Shown: positions 2,927 through 21,318, numbered from the stretch's first letter. The stretch: 21,318 nucleotides of DNA from Minisyncoccota bacterium (GCA_023129575.1 JAGMBS010000007.1:1-21318), one strand, 5' to 3'. Made by a program: numbers and translations. The notes: generated by a model not told the origin, from the letters alone.

Positions 2927-2990
2927 ACCGCAGATTTTAGCAAATTTAAGCCCTTTCTGCAACTTTTTTTATAATTAATCCGCTTTAGCT

Positions 2991-3140
2991 GAGGTCCGAC
3001 CTCTGAATTACCATAAATTTGAACTTTGGCTACTTTATGCTTGAAGTCCAACCTCTGAATAATCACATATACGCAATCTTTAGGCGCTTTGTTTTGCTTT
3101 ACTACAATTGAGGTCGGACTTCTTTAAATGGTCGGACCTC
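2991..3140. repeat. cluster of 4 REP-like palindromic units, GAGGTC[C/G]GACCTC
   Basis: Units: gaggtccgacctc 2991-3003, gaagtccaacctc 3044-3056, gaggtcggacttc 3110-3122, ggtcggacctc 3130-3140. The last two lie inside the 3' end of prfB. Confidence 0.6.
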
Positions 3141-4003
3141 TTTTTATAAATTAACTCCTCTAATTCTCCACCCTTTATCACTTTGTCAATATCTCTCATT
3201 TCCACGCCGCTGCGATGGTCTTTCACCATTTGATAGGGATGAAAAACATAAGAGCGAATCTGGTTGCCCCATTCTATGCTCATGGTTTTGCTGATTTTTT
3301 TTCCCGCTTCTTTTGCCAACCTTTCTTCCTCTTGTTTTTTATATAATTTGCCTCGCAAGATCTCTAAGGCCTTTTCTTTATTTTGCGCTTGAGTTCTTTC
3401 CGAATCAATATGAGCGGATATATTTGTCGGCAAATGCGTAATGCGCGCTGCCGTATCTCTCTTATTGACATTTTGCCCGCCCGGTCCGCTTGACCTGGAA
3501 AATTCAATTTTCAGGTCCTCTTCTTTTATTTCAACTCGGTCTGTCTTTTTAAATTTTGGAATGACTTCCACCATTGAAAACGAAGTGTGCCGTTTTTGAT
3601 TGGCGTTAAACGGCGAAAGGCGAACCAAACGATGCACCCCTGACTCATTTTTTAGAATGCCATAAGCGTTTGCTCCAATAATCTCAAATGTAATGTTTCT
3701 AAAACCCTTGTGTTCGTTTTCATTTTTGTGCAAGAGACGGGTCTGCCAACTTCTATTTTCAATAAATTTTTTATACATCTGGAAAAGGATGCGTGAAAAA
3801 TCTTCGGCGTCCAAACCGCCCGCACCGGAAAATATCGTCATCACGGCGCCACCCCGGTCGTATTTTTCTTTGCCCTCTATTTCATCTTTTTTTAATTCAA
3901 TTTCTTTAATAACCGCTTGCGCCCGTTTTTTATCTTGCCAAAAATCCGCTTTTAGCATTTCTTTTTCAAGAATTTCAAGTTCTTTTTTTAAATTTCTTTC
4001 CAT
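3080..4003 (-). CDS. prfB: peptide chain release factor 2 with a short N-terminal domain; continuous frame with no programmed +1 frameshift
   Basis: SPF tripeptide motif (LSPFNANQKRHTSF) and GGQ motif (SGPGGQNVNK). The ATG at 4003 (MERNLKKELE) is chosen because the upstream in-frame stretch is the reverse complement of tRNA-Ile. Confidence 0.85.
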   Translation of the reverse strand: MERNLKKELEILEKEMLKADFWQDKKRAQAVIKEIELKKDEIEGKEKYDRGGAVMTIFSGAGGLDAEDFSRILFQMYKKFIENRSWQTRLLHKNENEHKGFRNITFEIIGANAYGILKNESGVHRLVRLSPFNANQKRHTSFSMVEVIPKFKKTDRVEIKEEDLKIEFSRSSGPGGQNVNKRDTAARITHLPTNISAHIDSERTQAQNKEKALEILRGKLYKKQEEERLAKEAGKKISKTMSIEWGNQIRSYVFHPYQMVKDHRSGVEMRDIDKVIKGGELEELIYKKRSDHLKKSDLNCSKAKQSA

Positions 4004-6216: not shown

Positions 6217-6534
6217 TTATTGCAAGGTATAAAATACATTTGTTCCGATTTTGCCGTGCTGGGTTAATTTTCCGTTTTTTTCCAATTCATCCAAATATCT
6301 TTCCGCGGTAGCGTGCGAAACCCCGCACAATTTCTCAACATCATTATTCGTTATTTTCGGCATCGGTTCCGCATTTTGTCCGCGTCCATTCCGCATTAGA
6401 TTCAAAATCTTTTCTTTATTTTCCCTTTTCTTTTTACTTTGCCCAAAAATCAAACACTTTTTCTTTTTGGAACCAAAATAACCCCCAATAATAATTCCTA
6501 CTATTCCAACTAAAATTAAAACTAAACAGTTCAT
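6217..6534 (-). CDS. membrane-anchored winged-HTH protein (N-terminal TM helix plus C-terminal DeoR-like HTH), 105 aa
   Basis: N-terminus MNCLVLILVGIVGIIIGGYFG is a TM helix followed by a KKKK stop-transfer. The C-terminus ...ITNNDVEKLCGVSHATAERYLDELEKNGKLTQHGKIGTNVFYTLQ is a DeoR-like wHTH. The start lies 6 nt after the methyltransferase stop on the same strand. Confidence 0.6.
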   Translation of the reverse strand: MNCLVLILVGIVGIIIGGYFGSKKKKCLIFGQSKKKRENKEKILNLMRNGRGQNAEPMPKITNNDVEKLCGVSHATAERYLDELEKNGKLTQHGKIGTNVFYTLQ

Positions 6535-6540
6535 ATTTTT

Positions 6541-7653
6541 TTATTTCTCCATTAAAAATAAATATTCGTGATATTTACTGTCATCAGCAATCCAATCATT
6601 TGTCCAACACATATTTGCCATAACATTTTTTTTATAATCTATCTCAACAATTTTTAACAATTTTCCTGATTCGTTGATTATATCGCTCAATTCTTGTTTC
6701 GTGGCTCTGCCGCCGGAACTATATGATAATAAAATATAACGAGCGTCTATTTCTTGAATTAATTTATGCAATGCTTTCATCGCAAGAAATTTTTTGTCTT
6801 TATCTTTTCTAAATTCTTCAAACACAGAAGCAGAAATTTTATCCCTGCTATCTATCCGGCGATTTACTTTTCCAAACACAGTTGGTTTGTCGTGTTTAAT
6901 AATTGTGGTCCAAATATGATAATAGGAAGTATACCTCACACGGCTTGGCGGCATCTTTTCATTATTTGAACCATACGGAGGATCTAAATAAACAAAATCA
7001 AATTTATTTTTTGACACGGTATTAAAAATATCATCACAAATTATTCTATGTCCGCCATTGTGATCAAAACGATTAGGTAACTTCAAAAATAAGTTATTGT
7101 AAGAACGAGGAGACCACTGCGATAAATATGATACATAATGCCCAAGAGTGCTATCAACCGAATCAAGCGCATAGATTAAACTTGTTAAAATTACACACTT
7201 ATCTTCCCATTGTAAATTTAATTTTTCGACTTCCTTCCTAATAGCGTCCAATTTTCGAGTGTTTTTTGCTTGAAATGGCCGTTTTGTTCCTGTCAATTCC
7301 GCTCCATAATGTTCGGTGTACCAACCATCATATCCCTCTAAATTATTTAGATGATTTATTATTTTTTGATAAAAACCGTCTGTTTTTTTTGATTTCAAAT
7401 AACAAGTCGCAAAAACCTCTGACCAAATTGCAATATCATTTGAAGTTGTGTCATATCCTAATTGAGCAAACGCTTGAGATACTCGCGTAGAACCGCTAAA
7501 TCCATCCAGCACATTTTTGATTCCGTCCAACCCACTCATTATATCAATAATGTACGGCAAAATTTTGAGTTTTGAACCGGCATATTTTATACCCTCTGTT
7601 TGTGGAATTATTGGAATAGGCGTGTTAAAAATATTTAATTGCTCAGTAATCAT
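6541..7653 (-). CDS. DNA N6-adenine methyltransferase, D12/Dam-like (alpha) class
   Basis: KYAGSKLKILPYI matches the Dam KWAGGKxxLL motif. DGFSGSTRV is an FxGxG-like AdoMet motif. FVYLDPPYGSN is the DPPY catalytic motif IV. The start overlaps the stop of the upstream ORF by 4 nt. Confidence 0.85.
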   Translation of the reverse strand: MITEQLNIFNTPIPIIPQTEGIKYAGSKLKILPYIIDIMSGLDGIKNVLDGFSGSTRVSQAFAQLGYDTTSNDIAIWSEVFATCYLKSKKTDGFYQKIINHLNNLEGYDGWYTEHYGAELTGTKRPFQAKNTRKLDAIRKEVEKLNLQWEDKCVILTSLIYALDSVDSTLGHYVSYLSQWSPRSYNNLFLKLPNRFDHNGGHRIICDDIFNTVSKNKFDFVYLDPPYGSNNEKMPPSRVRYTSYYHIWTTIIKHDKPTVFGKVNRRIDSRDKISASVFEEFRKDKDKKFLAMKALHKLIQEIDARYILLSYSSGGRATKQELSDIINESGKLLKIVEIDYKKNVMANMCWTNDWIADDSKYHEYLFLMEK

Positions 7654-8513
7654 AATGTTTTTAAATGATCAATATCTTTTTGCAAAATATCATTTGCCAA
7701 TTTGTGTCCTTGTCTGGTGCTATTTAACGCTAGACCGAATAATCGGACAAGGGTGTGATTGTGAGAATAATCTATCCATCCGTTTGTTAATGAATCAAAA
7801 TAAAATTTGGCTTTCTGAGTATGTGTCCACAAACCCCGTTGCAAAGCATTCGCGGAAGCCCCACCGTATCGAACTTCACAAATATAATTACCGTCCGAAT
7901 CAATAAACATAAATATCGGGTGTTTTCTTCCTTTTCTTTTTATGACACTTTGCTTTGAAAAATCAAATTTTTTATTTTTACCAACAAAAATAATCCGTTG
8001 AGTTTTTCGTATCGCTTTTTTGTGGTCAAAAATCATTATATTGCATCTCTGATTTTTTTCATCATAAATAAGCGGCATAATATTGATTGCGTTAAAATCC
8101 TCAAATTCTTTCGCCTTAAAAATTTGCCCGATTTGTTTTTTGTCCTTTATATCTCGGCCTTGCAATACAAGAAATGGAAATAATTTTTGACGGCTATCTG
8201 TTGAAAGTTGAAGAGGGCCATCACCGTACGCCTTTAAACTCACGGGAAATTCCGCTTTTGTTATTTCGTTTATAATTACAATATCTTCCTCGTGTTCTTT
8301 CGCTCGAAATTTATCTTTACCGACATGCATACTTCTAAAGTCATACATAAATTGATTGATAAATTCAACCATGCCAATTTCCGCCAAATCGCCATGTGTT
8401 TTATTCCCGATCAAACGCATAGTAAAAATGTTGGAAAGTGTATTAATTACCAAATGTTTTTGTTTTCCAACTAATAACTTAAATCTTGTTTTAAAATCTT
8501 TGTATGTTGCCAT
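7650..8513 (-). CDS. putative type II restriction endonuclease partner of the Dam-like methyltransferase; family not recognised
   Basis: 287-aa ORF translationally coupled to the methyltransferase by a 4-nt overlap. No similarity to any known family was recognised by eye, including the DpnII/MboI family. The role is assigned by gene context only. Confidence 0.45.
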   Translation of the reverse strand: MATYKDFKTRFKLLVGKQKHLVINTLSNIFTMRLIGNKTHGDLAEIGMVEFINQFMYDFRSMHVGKDKFRAKEHEEDIVIINEITKAEFPVSLKAYGDGPLQLSTDSRQKLFPFLVLQGRDIKDKKQIGQIFKAKEFEDFNAINIMPLIYDEKNQRCNIMIFDHKKAIRKTQRIIFVGKNKKFDFSKQSVIKRKGRKHPIFMFIDSDGNYICEVRYGGASANALQRGLWTHTQKAKFYFDSLTNGWIDYSHNHTLVRLFGLALNSTRQGHKLANDILQKDIDHLKTL

Positions 8514-9611: not shown

Positions 9612-9656
9612 TTTAATCTATTTAATACAAATAATTATAACGGGACCTCTAAAATG

Positions 9657-9743
9657 CGGAGAGGACAGGATTCGAACCTGCGGTGGAATTTCTTCCACAC
9701 TCGCTTTCCAAGCGAGCGCCTTCGACCGCTCAGCCACCTCTCC
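9657..9743 (-). tRNA. tRNA-Ser(GGA)
   Basis: The reverse complement reads GGAGAGG-TG-GCTGAGCGGTCGAAGGC-G-CTCGC-TTGGAAA-GCGAG followed by the long variable arm GTGGAAGAAATTCCAC, then GCAGG-TTCGAATC-CTGTC-CTCTCC-G. Anticodon is GGA. The type II variable arm fits Ser. Confidence 0.9.
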
Positions 9744-9797
9744 GTTTATATTTTAATTGTGTAACAAATTTTTTAAAATTTTCAAATTCTATTTTAA

Positions 9798-9886
9798 TTC
9801 CACCGCGGTCGAACGAGTTCGTCCACCTTTGCTTTGCTACGGATGAATGCTCCCAAGGTCTCATTCATCCGCTCAGCCACCTCTCC
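9798..9886 (-). pseudogene. degenerate tandem copy of tRNA-Ser: intact 5' 18 nt, then a hairpin in place of the D-loop 3' part and anticodon arm, then a decayed 3' half
   Basis: GGAGAGGTGGCTGAGCGG is identical to nt 1-18 of the functional gene. It is followed by hairpin GGATGAATG-(12 nt)-CATTCATCC at 9841-9870. The downstream GTGGACGAAC..CGTTCGACC is a degenerate variable/T-arm. Confidence 0.45.
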
Positions 9887-9904
9887 AATATATTTCGCTC
9901 AAAG

Positions 9905-10023
9905 ATCTCATATTATCGCCGCTTCCTTTCAGTCAGCGAACGGTGGCTTCGCGTTCGCCACATCCGCTTCGCTCCTGATAAAATATGAAGCAGTTCATAT
10001 TTTATCCACTCAGCCACCTCTCC
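9905..10023 (-). pseudogene. second degenerate tRNA-Ser copy, carrying a hairpin with the GAAGCAGTTC loop in place of the anticodon region
   Basis: The 5' end GGAGAGGTGGCTGAGTGG matches 17 of 18 positions. Hairpin GATAAAATATGAA-GCAG-TTCATATTTTATC at 9977-10006 has a 13-bp perfect stem. A downstream segment GTGGCGAACGCGAAGCCAC-C-GTTCGCTGAC is a degenerate variable arm and T-arm. Confidence 0.45.
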
Positions 10024-10049
10024 AAAATTATTTTAATTTATTCCATATT

Positions 10050-10694
10050 TTAATCTTTATAAAAACTTTCATTAAAAACAACCACGGTATTTTTGTCTAA
10101 TTCTTTTTTAGCTTTATACATCGCTTTGTCCGCTTTATCAATCAATTTTTCAATATCACATTTTTTGTCGTGTTTGGAACAATACTCCGTCATATCAACA
10201 ACGCCAAAACTGGCGCTTAATTTTTGACCCCCCGCTTTTAATAATTGGAGTTTTTTTCTTATATTTTCCACAATGTTCGTTGCCATTGCAATATCCACTC
10301 CCAGCAACCCTATTACAAATTCGTCTCCGCCCCATCTTGCCACAATATCAAATTTTCTGACAGAGGACTTAAATAATTGAGCCGCTTTGACTAATGCTTG
10401 ATCGCCAACTTCGTGGCCGTTTGTATCGTTTATTTTTTTCAAATCATCAAGATCAATAAAAATTAAGGCAAAATCTTCAAAAATTATTTTTCTTTTTTCT
10501 TGTCTTTCTTTTCGATTGGCAATTTCTTCCAATACTTTATCTATTTCCATTAAAAATCCCCTCCGATTATAAAGCGAAGTTAAAACATCGCAATTCGCCA
10601 CCGAGCAAAGTTTTTTAATTTCTTCATTTTTCTCCCTTATCTTCTTTTCCAGAAGATTAATTTTTTCTTCTAATTGTTTAGTTGTGTCTTTCAT
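10050..10694 (-). CDS. GGDEF-domain protein (putative diguanylate cyclase) with N-terminal coiled coil
   Basis: Canonical motifs LYNRRGF...DLKKINDTNGHEVGD...RWGGDEF. The ATG at 10694 (MKDTTKQ) is preferred over the TTG-initiated extension to 10748, which overlaps htpX. Confidence 0.8.
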   Translation of the reverse strand: MKDTTKQLEEKINLLEKKIREKNEEIKKLCSVANCDVLTSLYNRRGFLMEIDKVLEEIANRKERQEKRKIIFEDFALIFIDLDDLKKINDTNGHEVGDQALVKAAQLFKSSVRKFDIVARWGGDEFVIGLLGVDIAMATNIVENIRKKLQLLKAGGQKLSASFGVVDMTEYCSKHDKKCDIEKLIDKADKAMYKAKKELDKNTVVVFNESFYKD

Positions 10695-12310: not shown

Positions 12311-12373
12311 AATTCAACACAAATTCTCGCTTGCCCGTCCGCCCAAGGCGGATTAGGGCTTTGCTCAAATTTG

Positions 12374-12455
12374 TGCCGGAGAGAGGACTTGAACCTCCAT
12401 GGATTGCTCCACTAGTTCCTAAGACTAGCGCGTCTACCAATTTCGCCACTCCGGC
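12374..12455 (-). tRNA. tRNA-Leu(TAG)
   Basis: Reverse complement: GCCGGAG-TG-GCGAAATTGGTAGACGC-G-CTAGT-CTTAGGA-ACTAG, long variable arm TGGAGCAATCCATGGA, GGTTCAAGTCC, CTCTCCGGC, A. Anticodon TAG; type II tRNA. Confidence 0.9.
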
Positions 12456-12597
12456 ATGTGTATTATTTAATTTTTAATATTATTGTCATATTTTCGGAAT
12501 TAGTGGAGACACTCCACTATCCCTATCGCCTGTTCCGCTCCGCTCCACATCGGCGATTTTTTGCTTCCCACCCAAGGCGGGCAGGCGCAAAAATCGG

Positions 12598-12717
12598 ATG
12601 AAAAATGAAGCAGTTCATTTTTCATTCACTCGACTAGCGCGTCTACCAATCCCGACGGTTCCGTCGGGACCCCGACTTATCGTCGGGGTTTCGCCACTCC
12701 GGCATGTGTATTATTTA
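12598..12717 (-). pseudogene. duplicated module upstream of tRNA-Leu: 14-nt upstream context, tRNA-Leu nt 1-31 with a 39-nt insertion in the D-loop, then a terminator-like hairpin
   Basis: TTCGCCACTCCGGCATGTGTATTATTTA is repeated (12441-12468 and 12688-12715). The 5' segment GCCGGAGTGGCGAA[39 nt]ATTGGTAGACGCGCTAGTC is otherwise identical to the functional gene. It ends in hairpin ATGAAAAATGAA-GCAG-TTCATTTTTCAT at 12598-12625, followed on the minus strand by CCGATTTTTG. Confidence 0.5.
12651..12689. repeat. GC-rich double-hairpin element, copy 2, inserted in the D-loop (between GCGAA and ATTGGTA) of the duplicated tRNA-Leu 5' segment
   Basis: CCCGACGG-TT-CCGTCGGG is a perfect 8-bp stem. CCCCGAC-TTAT-CGTCGGGG is a 7-bp stem. 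The intact tRNA-Leu 160 nt away lacks the insertion. Copy 1 at 1151-1188 also sits immediately 5' of ATTGGTA. Confidence 0.55.
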
Positions 12718-14646: not shown

Positions 14647-14672
14647 TTTGTGAAAAATAATTATAACTTTAA

Positions 14673-14900
14673 AAGAGGTTTGACCTTGATAGTGACGCTA
14701 AAAGAAGTCCGACCCCAATTGTGGTGCTACAAGAGGTCCGACCTAAATGGTGGTTTAATAAAGTTTGGTGTGTAAGGAATTATTATAGTTTAAGTTAATA
14801 GGTCGGACCTCGAGTGGCTAAACAATTATGCTTTGCATAAGTTAAGAGGTCGGACTTCATAAACACCGCACTTCAGTAACAATTCAGAGGTCGAACCTCG
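14673..14900. repeat. cluster of 6 REP-like units (GAGGTC[C/G]GACCTC family)
   Basis: Units: gaggtttgacct 14675-14686, aagaagtccgacc 14702-14714, aagaggtccgacct 14731-14744, ggtcggacctcg 14801-14812, aagaggtcggacttc 14844-14858, cagaggtcgaacctcg 14885-14900. The first three and last three are in inverted orientation. Confidence 0.65.
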
Positions 14901-14902
14901 TC

Positions 14903-15305: not shown

Positions 15306-15716
15306 TTATTGAAGATTTAACAATCCGGAACTTTCGGCGCCGAGACCGAGAAGAACGGCTTTGACTATCAGCCAGGCGCCGACGACAAAAAACAATCCAA
15401 AGGCGACATTTTTAAATATTTTATGCGCGGTTTTTATTTTACCCGGATCGCCCTGGGCCGACAAATACAAAAAACCGGCGTAAGCGAACATCGCGGTGGC
15501 AATCGGCGCGGCGAGATAAAGGGCAAAGTCAATGAGATTGCCCACTCCCCTTACAAGAGCGTTAAAATCGCATTTATTTTGCCAGGCATTATTGACCCAT
15601 TTCGGATTGCAAGGGATAAGGGGATCGTTTGGATTATACATTGCTTGAACAAAAGACGGCAAAGTTAAAGAAAACAGAATTATTAGGTATTTTATTTTGT
15701 TAGAATATTTTTTCAT
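15306..15716 (-). CDS. TrbC/VirB2-like pilin-family small membrane protein (paralog)
   Basis: ATG at 15716 (MKKYSNKIKYLIILFSLTLPSFVQA signal peptide); the track start at 15725 is TTG. Same architecture as 14903..15277: ...AAPIATAMFAYAGFLYLSAQGDPGKIKTA... plus a C-terminal TM helix. Confidence 0.5.
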   Translation of the reverse strand: MKKYSNKIKYLIILFSLTLPSFVQAMYNPNDPLIPCNPKWVNNAWQNKCDFNALVRGVGNLIDFALYLAAPIATAMFAYAGFLYLSAQGDPGKIKTAHKIFKNVAFGLFFVVGAWLIVKAVLLGLGAESSGLLNLQ

Positions 15717-15729
15717 TTTTTTCAAATAA

Positions 15730-15808
15730 GAGGTCCGACCTCAACAATGGTAAAATAATGAGGAATGGCCAAATCTTGTGTTTTGTATAAGTTAAGAGGT
15801 CGGACCTC
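15730..15808. repeat. inverted pair of REP-like units (GAGGTCCGACCTC ... GAGGTCGGACCTC) bracketing a 53-nt spacer
   Basis: Arms at 15730-15742 and 15796-15808, with flanks AAGAGG.. and ..CCTCTT, could form a ~15-bp stem. Lies between the SBP-like gene stop and the pilin gene start. Confidence 0.6.
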
Positions 15809-20593: not shown

Positions 20594-20600
20594 AATTGAT

Positions 20601-20678
20601 GAGGTTCGACCTCTTAACTGTTATTAAAATATAAATTAGTCAACTTGCATCATCATACTGCTTTCGAGGTCGAACCTC
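20601..20678. repeat. inverted pair of REP-like units (GAGGTTCGACCTC ... GAGGTCGAACCTC) bracketing a 52-nt spacer
   Basis: Arms at 20601-20613 and 20666-20678. Same geometry as the 15730-15808 pair, with an unrelated spacer sequence. Lies between the PBP gene stop and the small membrane gene start. Confidence 0.6.
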
Positions 20679-20681
20679 TTT

Positions 20682-21318
20682 TTAACGGTCCGGTTCCAGT
20701 TCATAATAATTAACTAAAAACTTGAAAATATCCATAAACGGGTGGGTTAAAGTGCGCGAAGCATATTCAACCTCTTTGGGATTTATAATATACAAAAACA
20801 CTAAAAATTCAGGTTTGGTCGCCGGAAAATATCCGAAAAAACTATGTAAATACTTATTGTCATAATACCCCCTTCCGTCCTCTTTTGCCATCTGCGCCGT
20901 GCCTGTTTTGGCGGCGATTGTATAATTGTCCGAACGGACCGTTCCCCCCAGAAGCGCGTTATCCACGACTTTTATCAGCATTTTTGTAATTTCTTGGCTT
21001 GTTTCTTCCTGAAAAACTCTCTCGTCATTATTGTAAAAAATTTTGTCAGAGGGTCTTAAATTGTATTCTATCTCTTTTACTAAATGTGGAGTAATCAGCC
21101 GTCCGCCATTTGCCAGCGCGGAAAACGCTTTAACGGTCGCAATCGGAGTAATAGCAACTCCTTGTCCAAAAGAAGCGGTCGCGTATTCAAGATCGCGCGG
21201 GCTTTTCAAATTGGAAACAAGACCGTATGTCTCGTTTGGCAAATCCACTCCCGTTTCTTCTCCCAAGCCCAATTTGAGCAAATAGTCCGCGAATTTTTTA
21301 TTGCCAACTTTTCTCGCC
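20682..21318 (-). CDS. penicillin-binding protein transpeptidase domain (FtsI/PBP2 family), C-terminal part; gene continues beyond the window
   Basis: KTGTAQ (the KTG motif), ...SFGQGVAITP... and a transpeptidase C-terminal pattern. The frame stays open with no stop up to the window end at 21318. Confidence 0.8.
   Translation of the reverse strand, partial: ARKVGNKKFADYLLKLGLGEETGVDLPNETYGLVSNLKSPRDLEYATASFGQGVAITPIATVKAFSALANGGRLITPHLVKEIEYNLRPSDKIFYNNDERVFQEETSQEITKMLIKVVDNALLGGTVRSDNYTIAAKTGTAQMAKEDGRGYYDNKYLHSFFGYFPATKPEFLVFLYIINPKEVEYASRTLTHPFMDIFKFLVNYYELEPDR

Follow-up and report, generated by a model that had tools for sequence, protein, structure and literature searches.

Hairpin-bearing units that copy the 5′ end of a neighbouring tRNA gene: a candidate family of tRNA-derived structured elements in Patescibacteria

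What are the two segments that stand before the tRNA-Ser(GGA) gene of a Minisyncoccota bacterium, each of which begins as the tRNA begins and then runs into a hairpin? We analysed them within a stretch of 21,318 nt (GCA_023129575.1 JAGMBS010000007.1:1-21318; hereafter the window), and refer to the segment adjoining the tRNA as unit B and to the more distant one as unit C. The initial annotation, made from the sequence alone, had treated them as degenerate tRNA copies in a tandem array and had offered three explanations: (a) footprints of a small mobile or intron-like element targeting tRNA genes, (b) tRNA-derived small RNA genes or (c) decaying tandem duplicates. We conclude that B and C are not decaying pseudogenes, and we judge the chances to be even that they belong, within the ultra-small Patescibacteria, to a conserved family of structured elements that derive from tRNA and work as leaders or small RNAs.

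The features described for the array were borne out, with the correction that all of them lie on the minus strand, to which the coordinates below refer unless another strand is given. The intact tRNA-Ser(GGA), in which CCA is not encoded, occupies positions 9656-9743 and was identified by both ARAGORN and Rfam (RF00005, 56.9 bits). It is preceded by unit B (9744-9886, 143 nt), a divergent and partly degenerate member of the family, and then by unit C (9887-10023, 137 nt), a complete ‘short-type’ member. Unit B opens with a copy of tRNA-Ser nt 1-18 that is identical at 18/18 positions (9869-9886), and unit C with one that is identical at 17/18 (10006-10023), having T for C at nt 16. The 18-mer GGAGAGGTGGCTGAGYGG is thereby present three times in the window, always on the minus strand (9726-9743, 9869-9886 and 10006-10023), and none is expected from 100 shuffles, in agreement with the claim that two further copies of the conserved first 18 nt lie upstream of the tRNA-Ser. 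Only the copy at 9726-9743 belongs to a detectable tRNA: the check with tRNA models that had been proposed for this region gave one tRNA-Ser and no match in B or C, either by ARAGORN or by RF00005 even at E≤10 over the 280 nt upstream of the tRNA-Ser. Both hairpins are present as described, GGATGAATG..CATTCATCC in B (9841-9870) and GATAAAATATGAA-GCAG-TTCATATTTTATC in C (9977-10007). However, homology to tRNA could not be demonstrated for the ‘decayed but recognisable variable arm and T-arm’ that had been placed after each hairpin, and the tRNA similarity of the units ends at nt 18. The sequence 3′ of the hairpins holds conserved modules of the family, namely a GCGAAGC mini-hairpin, an AGGTGG box and a strand antisense to the 5′ part of the tRNA, to which unit C adds a hairpin with the loop GACUGAAAGGA.

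The hairpin that follows the 5′ copy, here called HP1, has the form GAU[G/A]AAA..AACUGCUU..UUU[C/U]AUC directly 3′ of G18G19; it is complete in C and only partial in B, where a variant stem (GGAUGAAUG) carries an unrelated loop. Its core in C, ATGAACTGCTTCAT, occurs exactly twice in the window (9985-9998 and 12605-12618; 0.13 expected), and a search for the motif, as the initial annotation had advised, thus leads to a second site before the tRNA-Leu(TAG) gene. The C hairpin and the hairpin of that tRNA-Leu unit share this core and are 86% identical over 35 nt (repeat family D17), so the recurrence noted earlier is real. To define the extent of the family, metagenome contigs, which carry no taxonomy, were scanned with a pattern that combined the hairpin with a GAGYGRAT prefix and kept nine stem positions and some of the loop unconstrained. 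This yielded at least 120 stretches and, among the matches listed, all 99 that have a same-strand tRNA gene within 600 nt downstream precede Ser, Tyr or Leu: 69 Ser (GGA, CGA, GCU, UGA), 16 Tyr and 14 Leu (UAA, CAA, UAG), a class II restriction to which the pattern itself contributes, GAGYGG being the D-loop sequence of class II tRNAs. Variants of the element also precede tRNA-Glu and tRNA-Lys genes, and other 5′ fragments were found as by-catch before tRNA-Trp and tRNA-Arg genes. The suggestion that one small element is associated with two tRNA isotypes was therefore right and understated, with Ser, Tyr and Leu involved in at least 120 contigs and variants at Glu and Lys. Among these class I cases (loci are given by L numbers), the tRNA-Glu unit (L189, ~400-593) has a canonical HP1 after nt 1-21, the tRNA-Lys unit (L193, ~9920-10125) breaks after G18G19 and carries modules of the long type described below, and the tRNA-Trp and tRNA-Arg fragments lie in L192 and L193 respectively.

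The link to the neighbouring tRNA extends to its exact sequence. In 75 of the 88 distinct units listed, the 5′ end of the element is an exact copy, at least 10 nt long, of the 5′ end of the downstream tRNA; the copy is mostly 18-19 nt in length and ends at G18G19 of the D-loop. The sequence after the hairpin splits into subfamilies that track tRNA identity, most units measure 100-190 nt without an open reading frame (ORF), and tandem doubles are frequent (e.g. L096, L110, L115, L127, L131, L133, L153, L154 and L188). The same pattern gave no match in 2.9 million viral contigs, and a phage origin is therefore unsupported.

The units have also been retained over considerable divergence. An HtpX protease gene lies between the tRNA-Ser and tRNA-Leu loci of the window, and its closest relatives, 55-75% identical, all come from metagenome-assembled genomes of Patescibacteria (candidate phyla radiation); units are retained in genomes with 55-62% HtpX identity. 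In L006, a Paceibacterota genome with an HtpX merely 62% identical to that of the window, a counterpart of unit C (2055-2205) adjoins tRNA-Ser(GGA) on its upstream side, matches C at 94% identity over the first 68 nt, shares the motifs GCUGACUGAAAGG and GAGCGAAAUAUAUU and shows a compensatory G-C to A-U double change in HP1. The look at orthologous loci that had been recommended thus found unit C kept in its place, and the proposal of decaying duplicates, option (c), is not supported in view of this compensated retention at 62% HtpX identity. In addition, a covariance model, R1, was built from an alignment (A1) of twenty short-type units, C included, and run on the window and 80 unselected Patescibacteria loci. 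The seeds C and L006 scored 108 and 80 bits, and the matches outside the seed were B (39.2 bits, E ~1e-6), the tRNA-Leu unit of the window (38.6 bits), L030, L029, L039, L076, L002 and L001; the E-values are rough, and scores near tRNA genes are inflated since the seeds share a tRNA-like 5′ end.

Support for the helices was assessed by shuffle controls, which take no account of relatedness. In 72 distinct hairpins, the four stem pairs of HP1 that the search pattern leaves free were paired in 85-94% of cases, as against 46-63% when shuffled, with 3-5 pair types each; the loop core CUGC was present in 44 of the 72, and the loop AACUGCUU is almost invariant across the family. A second helix, P1, is formed in A1 by nt 2-16 of the 5′ copy and an internal strand ~35 nt 3′ of HP1. 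For P1 and HP1 together, 86% of the cells of A1 were paired compared with 78% after shuffling (none of 500 shuffles was as high), changes on both sides were seen at twelve pairs, and controls with slid partners gave 38-45%. Positions 13-14 of P1 are either Watson-Crick pairs or tandem G·A/A·G. Unguided RNAalifold recovered HP1 and the core of P1 and, in the long-type units, which have two extra variable hairpins and a 3′ module AGGWGGA-hairpin-UUCGACCAC, that 3′ module as well. Readings of the conserved motifs as box C/D, a K-turn, an anticodon mimic or CsrA sites were considered and set aside, as GAUG and CAUC covary as plain Watson-Crick pairs.

In unit C these parts can be followed from end to end. 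Its HP1 (9977-10007) has a stem of 13-14 bp and the conserved loop core CUGC within AACUGCUU, as supported by covariation in the 72 hairpins and by A1. The GCGAAGC mini-hairpin with its GAA triloop comes next (9966-9972), followed by the 3′ strand of P1, GCGAAGCCACCGUUC (9938-9952), which is antisense to nt 2-16 of the 5′ copy, tandem G·A/A·G included, and therefore antisense to the real tRNA too. Base-pair counts on A1, RNAalifold (for the P1 core, unaided) and the minimum free energy (MFE) fold of C all support this strand, with P1 of C consisting of GGUGGCU/AGCCACC (7 Watson-Crick pairs), the tandem G·A and then 3 further pairs. A second hairpin, HP2 (9918-9937), has the loop GACUGAAAGGA on a stem that covaries between copies, and the same loop is carried by differing stems in L002, L006, L104, L115, L164 and at 166-186 of the window. 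Unit B departs from this plan. At the position of HP1 it has the variant hairpin at 9841-9870, with a 9 bp stem (GGAUGAAUG/CAUUCAUCC) and a 12-nt loop; a relative of B in L114 has the same stem with a different loop. It aligns further on with the long-type 3′ module, in the form AGGUGGA-CGAACUCGUUCG-ACCGC (9805-9828; alignment A2 and RNAalifold), the 3′ half of which, UUCGACCGC, is antisense to D-loop nt 15-23, GCGGUCGAA, of the window's own tRNA-Ser. Of the P1 3′ strand, B retains only this part antisense to nt 15-23 and has lost the rest, and its AT-rich tail holds the promoter-like site of the tRNA-Ser. Close relatives of B form two tandem copies behind an HP1-type unit before the tRNA-Ser of L114, giving an array of three units in the same order as C-B-tRNA in the window.

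The third unit of interest in the window, ~250 nt long, precedes the intact tRNA-Leu(TAG) (12373-12455; ARAGORN and Rfam) at 12456-12717. It consists in order of a 29-nt exact repeat of tRNA-Leu positions -14..+15 (family D5), a 39-nt GC double hairpin inside the D-loop, tRNA-Leu nt 15-33, HP1 (12597-12631) and further hairpins, and has counterparts in L001, L002, L170 and L196. A related insertion was noticed ~45 nt upstream of tRNA-Thr(UGU) (1021-1094), where a degenerate tRNA-Thr 5′ fragment, GCCAGCAUAUCUCAG..AUUGGUAAGGCA (1139-1203), has its D-loop interrupted by a 38-nt GC-rich double hairpin that is 87% identical (family D9) to the one splitting the D-loop of the tRNA-Leu unit (12644-12688).

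The internal antisense strand is a general property of the units. It is complementary to nt 1-25 of the cognate tRNA in 49 of 67 units, usually extending to nt 21-28, past the end of the 18-nt copy, and its pairs with the tRNA number 659 Watson-Crick, 44 G·U, 36 G·A and 9 A·C. A 9-mer antisense to nt 15-23 matches the cognate D-loop variant in 21 of the 22 units that carry one, a count that is confounded with subfamily descent, and the match to tRNA nt 19-27, which lie outside the 18-nt copy, is weak (9-mer, 6.15 versus 5.81 matches, p=0.005). The MFE of the tRNA-sense strand was below that of the antisense strand in 58 of 62 units (-54.8 versus -48.0 kcal/mol, p=3e-11), with 250 G·U pairs on the sense fold versus 117 on the antisense fold. 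In 88 leaders (L084-L203), GCGAAGC occurred 39 times in the sense orientation and never in the antisense orientation. The sense strand alone is likewise strongly enriched in variants such as GCGUAGC and GCAAAGC and in C-GAA-G-closed hairpins immediately upstream of the tRNA start. From these biases in folding and in GCGAAGC, we conclude that it is one strand, oriented as the tRNA, that folds. The folded strand may be RNA, or single-stranded DNA as the less simple alternative; d(GCGAAGC) forms an unusually stable DNA mini-hairpin.

Candidate transcription signals lie at matching positions before the units and the tRNA genes. A consensus scan predicted TTTAAA-16-TAAAAT at 9750-9777, the -10-like TAAAAT (9750-9755) ending 6 nt before tRNA-Ser +1, and reading of the sequence revealed a -10-like TAAAAT (10030-10035) ending 6 nt before unit C +1. 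At the second locus, a -10-like AATAAT stands 6 nt before tRNA-Leu +1 (12462-12467) and another 6 nt before the unit upstream of it (12710-12715). With hexamers at this distance, transcription would begin at the 5′ end of the mature tRNA or in its immediate vicinity. When all 234 tRNA genes were examined for a sharp -10 box at a fixed offset, only a modest peak was obtained, and we therefore make no claim of leaderless tRNA transcription. No terminator-like site was predicted between C, B and the tRNA-Ser. The repeat shared by unit and tRNA reaches 28-35 nt upstream of +1 in L101 and L110, where up to ~40-50 nt of upstream-plus-5′ sequence is repeated. Taken with the covariation and the strand-specific folding, the -10-like boxes at equal offsets make option (b), tRNA-derived small RNA genes, the best fit of those originally proposed.

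In overall plan, a unit of the family adjoins its tRNA gene upstream on the same strand and opens with an exact copy of about the first 18 nt, up to G18G19, followed by HP1 with its almost invariant loop, by variable hairpins and by the AGGWGG box. The strand antisense to the tRNA 5′ part then pairs back on the 5′ copy in P1, a closing helix of 12-16 bp. This plan is shown by the data, as are the conservation, the covariation, the strand bias and the link to tRNA genes, whereas transcription, function and the way in which arrays form are inferred. If B and C do act as leaders or small RNAs, transcription would proceed in the direction of the tRNA, starting at a -10 box that was duplicated along with the 5′ copy, along with the tRNA, or both. 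As RNA, the unit would be self-closed, its strand antisense to the cognate tRNA being masked by a strand identical to the tRNA, and it might influence how the cognate pre-tRNA folds or is processed, or titrate a factor recognising the 5′ or acceptor end of the tRNA. Arrays of the C-B-tRNA type may have arisen where the repeated promoter-plus-18-nt segments recombined unequally or underwent gene conversion with one another, a process that would explain the arrays, the differences in copy number and the exact identity of 5′ copy and tRNA. We further put forward, speculatively and as a rather improbable extension, that the units represent a ‘masked antisense’ class of tRNA-coupled regulatory RNA, in which the strand antisense to nt 1-25 lies under a tRNA-identical lid made of the 18-nt copy and a second D-loop copy. 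If this is true, the RNA could, once the lid is open, capture the cognate pre-tRNA or a factor reading its 5′ or acceptor end, with isoacceptor-specific control of Ser, Leu and Tyr tRNA supply in minimal genomes as the consequence.

Several observations weigh against a leader or small RNA role. The distribution is patchy, with a 5′ copy at about 8 of the 58 HtpX-linked tRNA-Ser(GGA) genes, and therefore speaks against an indispensable role in tRNA maturation. The class II restriction is in part made by the pattern and class I examples exist, R1 scores near tRNA genes are inflated as stated above, and unit B and the L006 copy are without an intact P1 3′ strand. Arrays of unlike subtypes, and GIY-YIG nuclease ORFs at the same position, fit a selfish or mobile element, and strand-biased folding with tolerance of G·T is equally expected of a folded single-stranded DNA site. 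On such grounds the units may be non-autonomous mobile DNA elements that insert at tRNA genes just after G18G19 and regenerate an intact gene, which we regard as possible, if on the unlikely side. P1, composed of the 5′ copy and its inverted copy, would serve as terminal inverted repeats or, in another variant, single-stranded DNA would fold into a double-stranded mimic of the start of the tRNA gene, like integron attC or CTX-phage attP; as each insertion would recreate its target, arrays would build up. The right junction is indeed fixed at G18G19 in Ser, Tyr and Lys units while its left boundary may lie anywhere between 0 and ~35 nt upstream for the repeat, the arrays join unlike units (C and B in the window, three in L114), occurrence among related genomes is patchy, and GIY-YIG ORFs lie between a 5′ fragment and an intact tRNA-Ser in L026, L053, L056 and L075. 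The ends of mirror-image units located downstream of tRNAs correspond to the 3′ end of the local tRNA, and the DNA stability of the GCGAAGC hairpin would also suit such an element. However, there is no transposase or integrase beside any unit examined and most units have no ORF, the subfamilies of the body follow tRNA identity and do not move freely between tRNAs, and target duplication of the transposase type would not give direct repeats of such length and variability. Compared with a miniature inverted-repeat transposable element, which has terminal inverted repeats, a short target duplication of fixed length and dispersed near-identical copies, the units show an inverted repeat (P1) and a flanking direct repeat, but the direct repeat measures 10 to ~50 nt, the copies lie at tRNA genes only and their ends match the local tRNA. 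Furthermore, the intact tRNA retains the whole putative target, so that classical homing logic fails, no copies were found in the 2.9 million viral contigs, and three contigs with this locus are identical, with no presence/absence polymorphism seen. Of option (a), the ‘intron-like’ part is not supported, there being no 3′ exon, no group I intron match and an intact tRNA after the unit, whereas the ‘mobile’ part may apply. An RNA function and mobility are compatible and not mutually exclusive.

The same helix lends itself to a different explanation, namely that P1 imitates the cognate acceptor stem, and that the RNA is trimmed by RNase P and RNase Z, receives CCA and is bound or charged by SerRS, LeuRS or TyrRS, either to act as a decoy or to donate its amino acid outside translation. 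The cognate acceptor stem is indeed equalled by the outer 5-7 bp of P1, the 3′ strand of several short-type Ser units ends in ..CC followed by G, like C71-C72-G73, with A in most Leu units (a weak observation, made by eye), and ‘minihelix’ units downstream of tRNAs copy the acceptor and T-stem, one of them (L029) encoding CCA. SerRS and LeuRS, moreover, do not need the anticodon. Against this, an automated count did not bear out the discriminator mimicry seen by eye in short-type units, the base after P1 equalling the tRNA discriminator in just 6 of 18 units; P1 runs as one unbroken helix through nt 8-16, unlike tRNA, a T-loop could not be demonstrated, and Rfam gave no match to RF00005, tmRNA or any other tRNA-like family for the units in the window and five related loci. 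We consider this mimicry doubtful. Neutral decay of tandem tRNA duplicates, with hairpins arising by chance or from small palindromic insertions, would account for the roughly colinear order of the units with tRNA (5′ acceptor strand, D-loop, hairpins, 3′ strand) and for the loss of the P1 3′ strand in B, and GC-rich palindromes do insert in such copies (the window's tRNA-Leu unit, L001 and L078). Compensatory changes in several helices, loops almost invariant across at least 120 contigs, retention at 55-62% HtpX identity and strand-biased folding all oppose it, and we regard this very improbable origin as excluded on the basis of covariation and deep conservation. An intron-containing or split tRNA, in which the upstream 18 nt would be a true 5′ exon or half joined by splicing, could be suggested by the resemblance of P1 to an exon-guide pairing. 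Every unit is followed by a complete uninterrupted tRNA, no group I intron was matched even at E≤1 to 10, and at 100-190 nt the units are shorter than group I introns; with an intact tRNA behind each of them and no match to any intron model, we exclude this reading too, which is more improbable still. Rfam 15, searched at gathering and permissive thresholds with the window and five related loci, returned tRNAs only, which leads us to reject known families, including group I introns, tmRNA, ribozymes and Drum.

Other features at these loci deserve description. The GIY-YIG ORFs mentioned above (L026 7637-7959, L053 9025-9346, L056 ~7540-7840 and L075 ~6530-6829) are all at tRNA-Ser(GGA) and encode 80-82 aa with the catalytic domain only (PF01541, E 1e-13 to 3e-18); the 5′ tRNA fragment at these loci is often split by a GC double hairpin. 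Arrays of ~200-nt units occur downstream of tRNA-Ser or tRNA-Leu at L001 5300-5811 (reversed), L002 1362-1760, L007 2208-3100 and L029 7155-7225. Each of these units opens with the tRNA 3′ end in reverse complement and closes with the same end in direct orientation, and one core is found behind both Ser (L001 and L007) and Leu (L002), its ends fitting the local tRNA in each case. In L029, the unit is a 14-bp acceptor/T-stem ‘minihelix’ that encodes CCA though the tRNA gene does not. The window contains a mirror-image ‘downstream’ unit of this kind on the plus strand at 110-277, after a partial tRNA-Leu(CAA) (1-83), which has a near copy of the acceptor 5′ strand (GCCUGGG) at its start, an HP1-like hairpin GAAAGCCGACUGCUUGGCUUUC, an HP2-like hairpin GUUGC-GACUGGAAGGA-GCAAC and a copy of the tRNA-Leu 3′ end, GAUUCCUCUCCUCGGCAC, at its end; the same design recurs after tRNA-Leu(TAG) in L002. 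A perfect 20-nt palindrome, CCTGCCTGCCGGCAGGCAGG, is located in the D-loop of upstream tRNA-Leu and tRNA-Ser pseudo-copies of different genomes (L001 ~3290-3310, L078 ~6265-6285 and L196), with an imperfect form inside the L001 downstream unit. In addition, more than 10 copies of the palindrome GAGGTC(C/G)GACCTC, with shared flanks AAGAGGTCGGACCTC, are intergenic on both strands (window 2990-3125, 14668-14902, 15710-15808 and 20596-20685) and form a separate short repeat family, possibly of terminators or of a small palindromic element.

Overlap of B and C with ORFs is confined to two mechanical ones on the plus strand, 88 and 101 aa long, which are antisense to the units and unsupported, and no integrase-bearing element, of which an attachment site might be a remnant, is present at these 143 and 137 nt units. 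Their neighbouring genes encode a GGDEF protein and a 204-aa protein, the latter with no Pfam match on record. The window DNA matches contig DAOWKT010000005.1 of assembly GCA_030639765.1. Three contigs with the downstream protein were identical in spacing, so that no presence/absence polymorphism was seen at the locus, and a search for the GGDEF protein with the same aim found no record.

Among known systems, fragments of tRNA genes are common in prokaryotes at the integration sites of islands, prophages and integrative elements (PMC9897764). They resemble the present units in that a short exact copy of a tRNA end lies beside an intact gene and that repeated events lead to arrays. Such fragments, however, are usually 3′ ends, are separated from the gene by the kilobases of an integrase-encoding element and lack a conserved fold, whereas the HP1 units copy the 5′ end, are 100-190 nt long, non-coding, conserved and covarying, and have no integrase nearby. 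In Escherichia coli, 178-bp repeats downstream of tyrT each contain ~19 nt of the tRNA-Tyr 3′ end and are accounted for by unequal recombination. Tandem units of ~180 bp at a class II tRNA gene bear a likeness to the downstream arrays of L001, L002 and L007, but the tyrT repeats are confined to the 3′ side of one locus in one species with no reported conserved hairpin set, while the HP1 units, on the 5′ side, make up a family that spans many genomes and isotypes. The tRNA-like domains of tmRNA, the Y-like RNA YrlA and viral tRNA-like structures likewise put tRNA sequence or shape to use in molecules other than tRNA, their 5′ and 3′ ends being paired; the HP1 units differ from them in having no Rfam match, a helix unbroken over nt 2-16 and no demonstrable T-arm or elbow, and in that the mimic is bound to the exact sequence of the neighbouring gene. 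None of these three systems combines an exact 5′-end copy, a conserved hairpin set and an internal antisense strand.

Leader attenuators offer an analogy only. In amino-acid operon leaders, attenuation follows a 1:2 / 2:3 / 3:4 pairing logic, as would a masked-antisense switch, and here the 5′ copy, the antisense strand and the 5′ part of the real tRNA could likewise pair in mutually exclusive ways. In contrast with such leaders, neither C nor B has a predicted terminator, the ‘gene’ that follows is a tRNA and there is no evident ligand or sensor. Patescibacteria tRNA genes also harbour self-splicing group I introns at position 35/36, between two exons (PMC13011429). These are structured RNAs at tRNA genes of the same phylum that standard annotation misses, but the HP1 units have no 3′ exon and no RF00028 match and are followed by an intact tRNA; the same survey of tRNA introns (PMC13011429) does not mention units of the HP1 type. 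SegB is a free-standing GIY-YIG homing endonuclease of the phage T4 tRNA gene cluster (PMC2330249), and the four Patescibacteria loci with GIY-YIG genes at tRNA genes are similar to it. In contrast, the units of the window have no ORF, the intact tRNA keeps the whole putative target, and a link between nuclease and HP1 was not demonstrated. No account of these units turned up in the literature searched, and the HP1 element family is apparently undescribed.

Patescibacteria make up a large share of bacterial diversity, with minimal genomes and few known regulatory RNAs. In this context, the HP1 element stands out as a structured element present in at least 120 contigs, tied to the exact sequence of the neighbouring tRNA and absent from Rfam. 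The family is now defined in a testable way by a DNA pattern, the model R1 and the helices P1 and HP1. As the units resemble tRNA pseudogenes or fragments, they will mislead tRNA gene counts in annotation. They would represent one of two novelties: a kind of tRNA-linked RNA that bears on how reduced genomes control tRNA supply or maturation, or a means by which selfish DNA settles at tRNA genes and leaves them intact.

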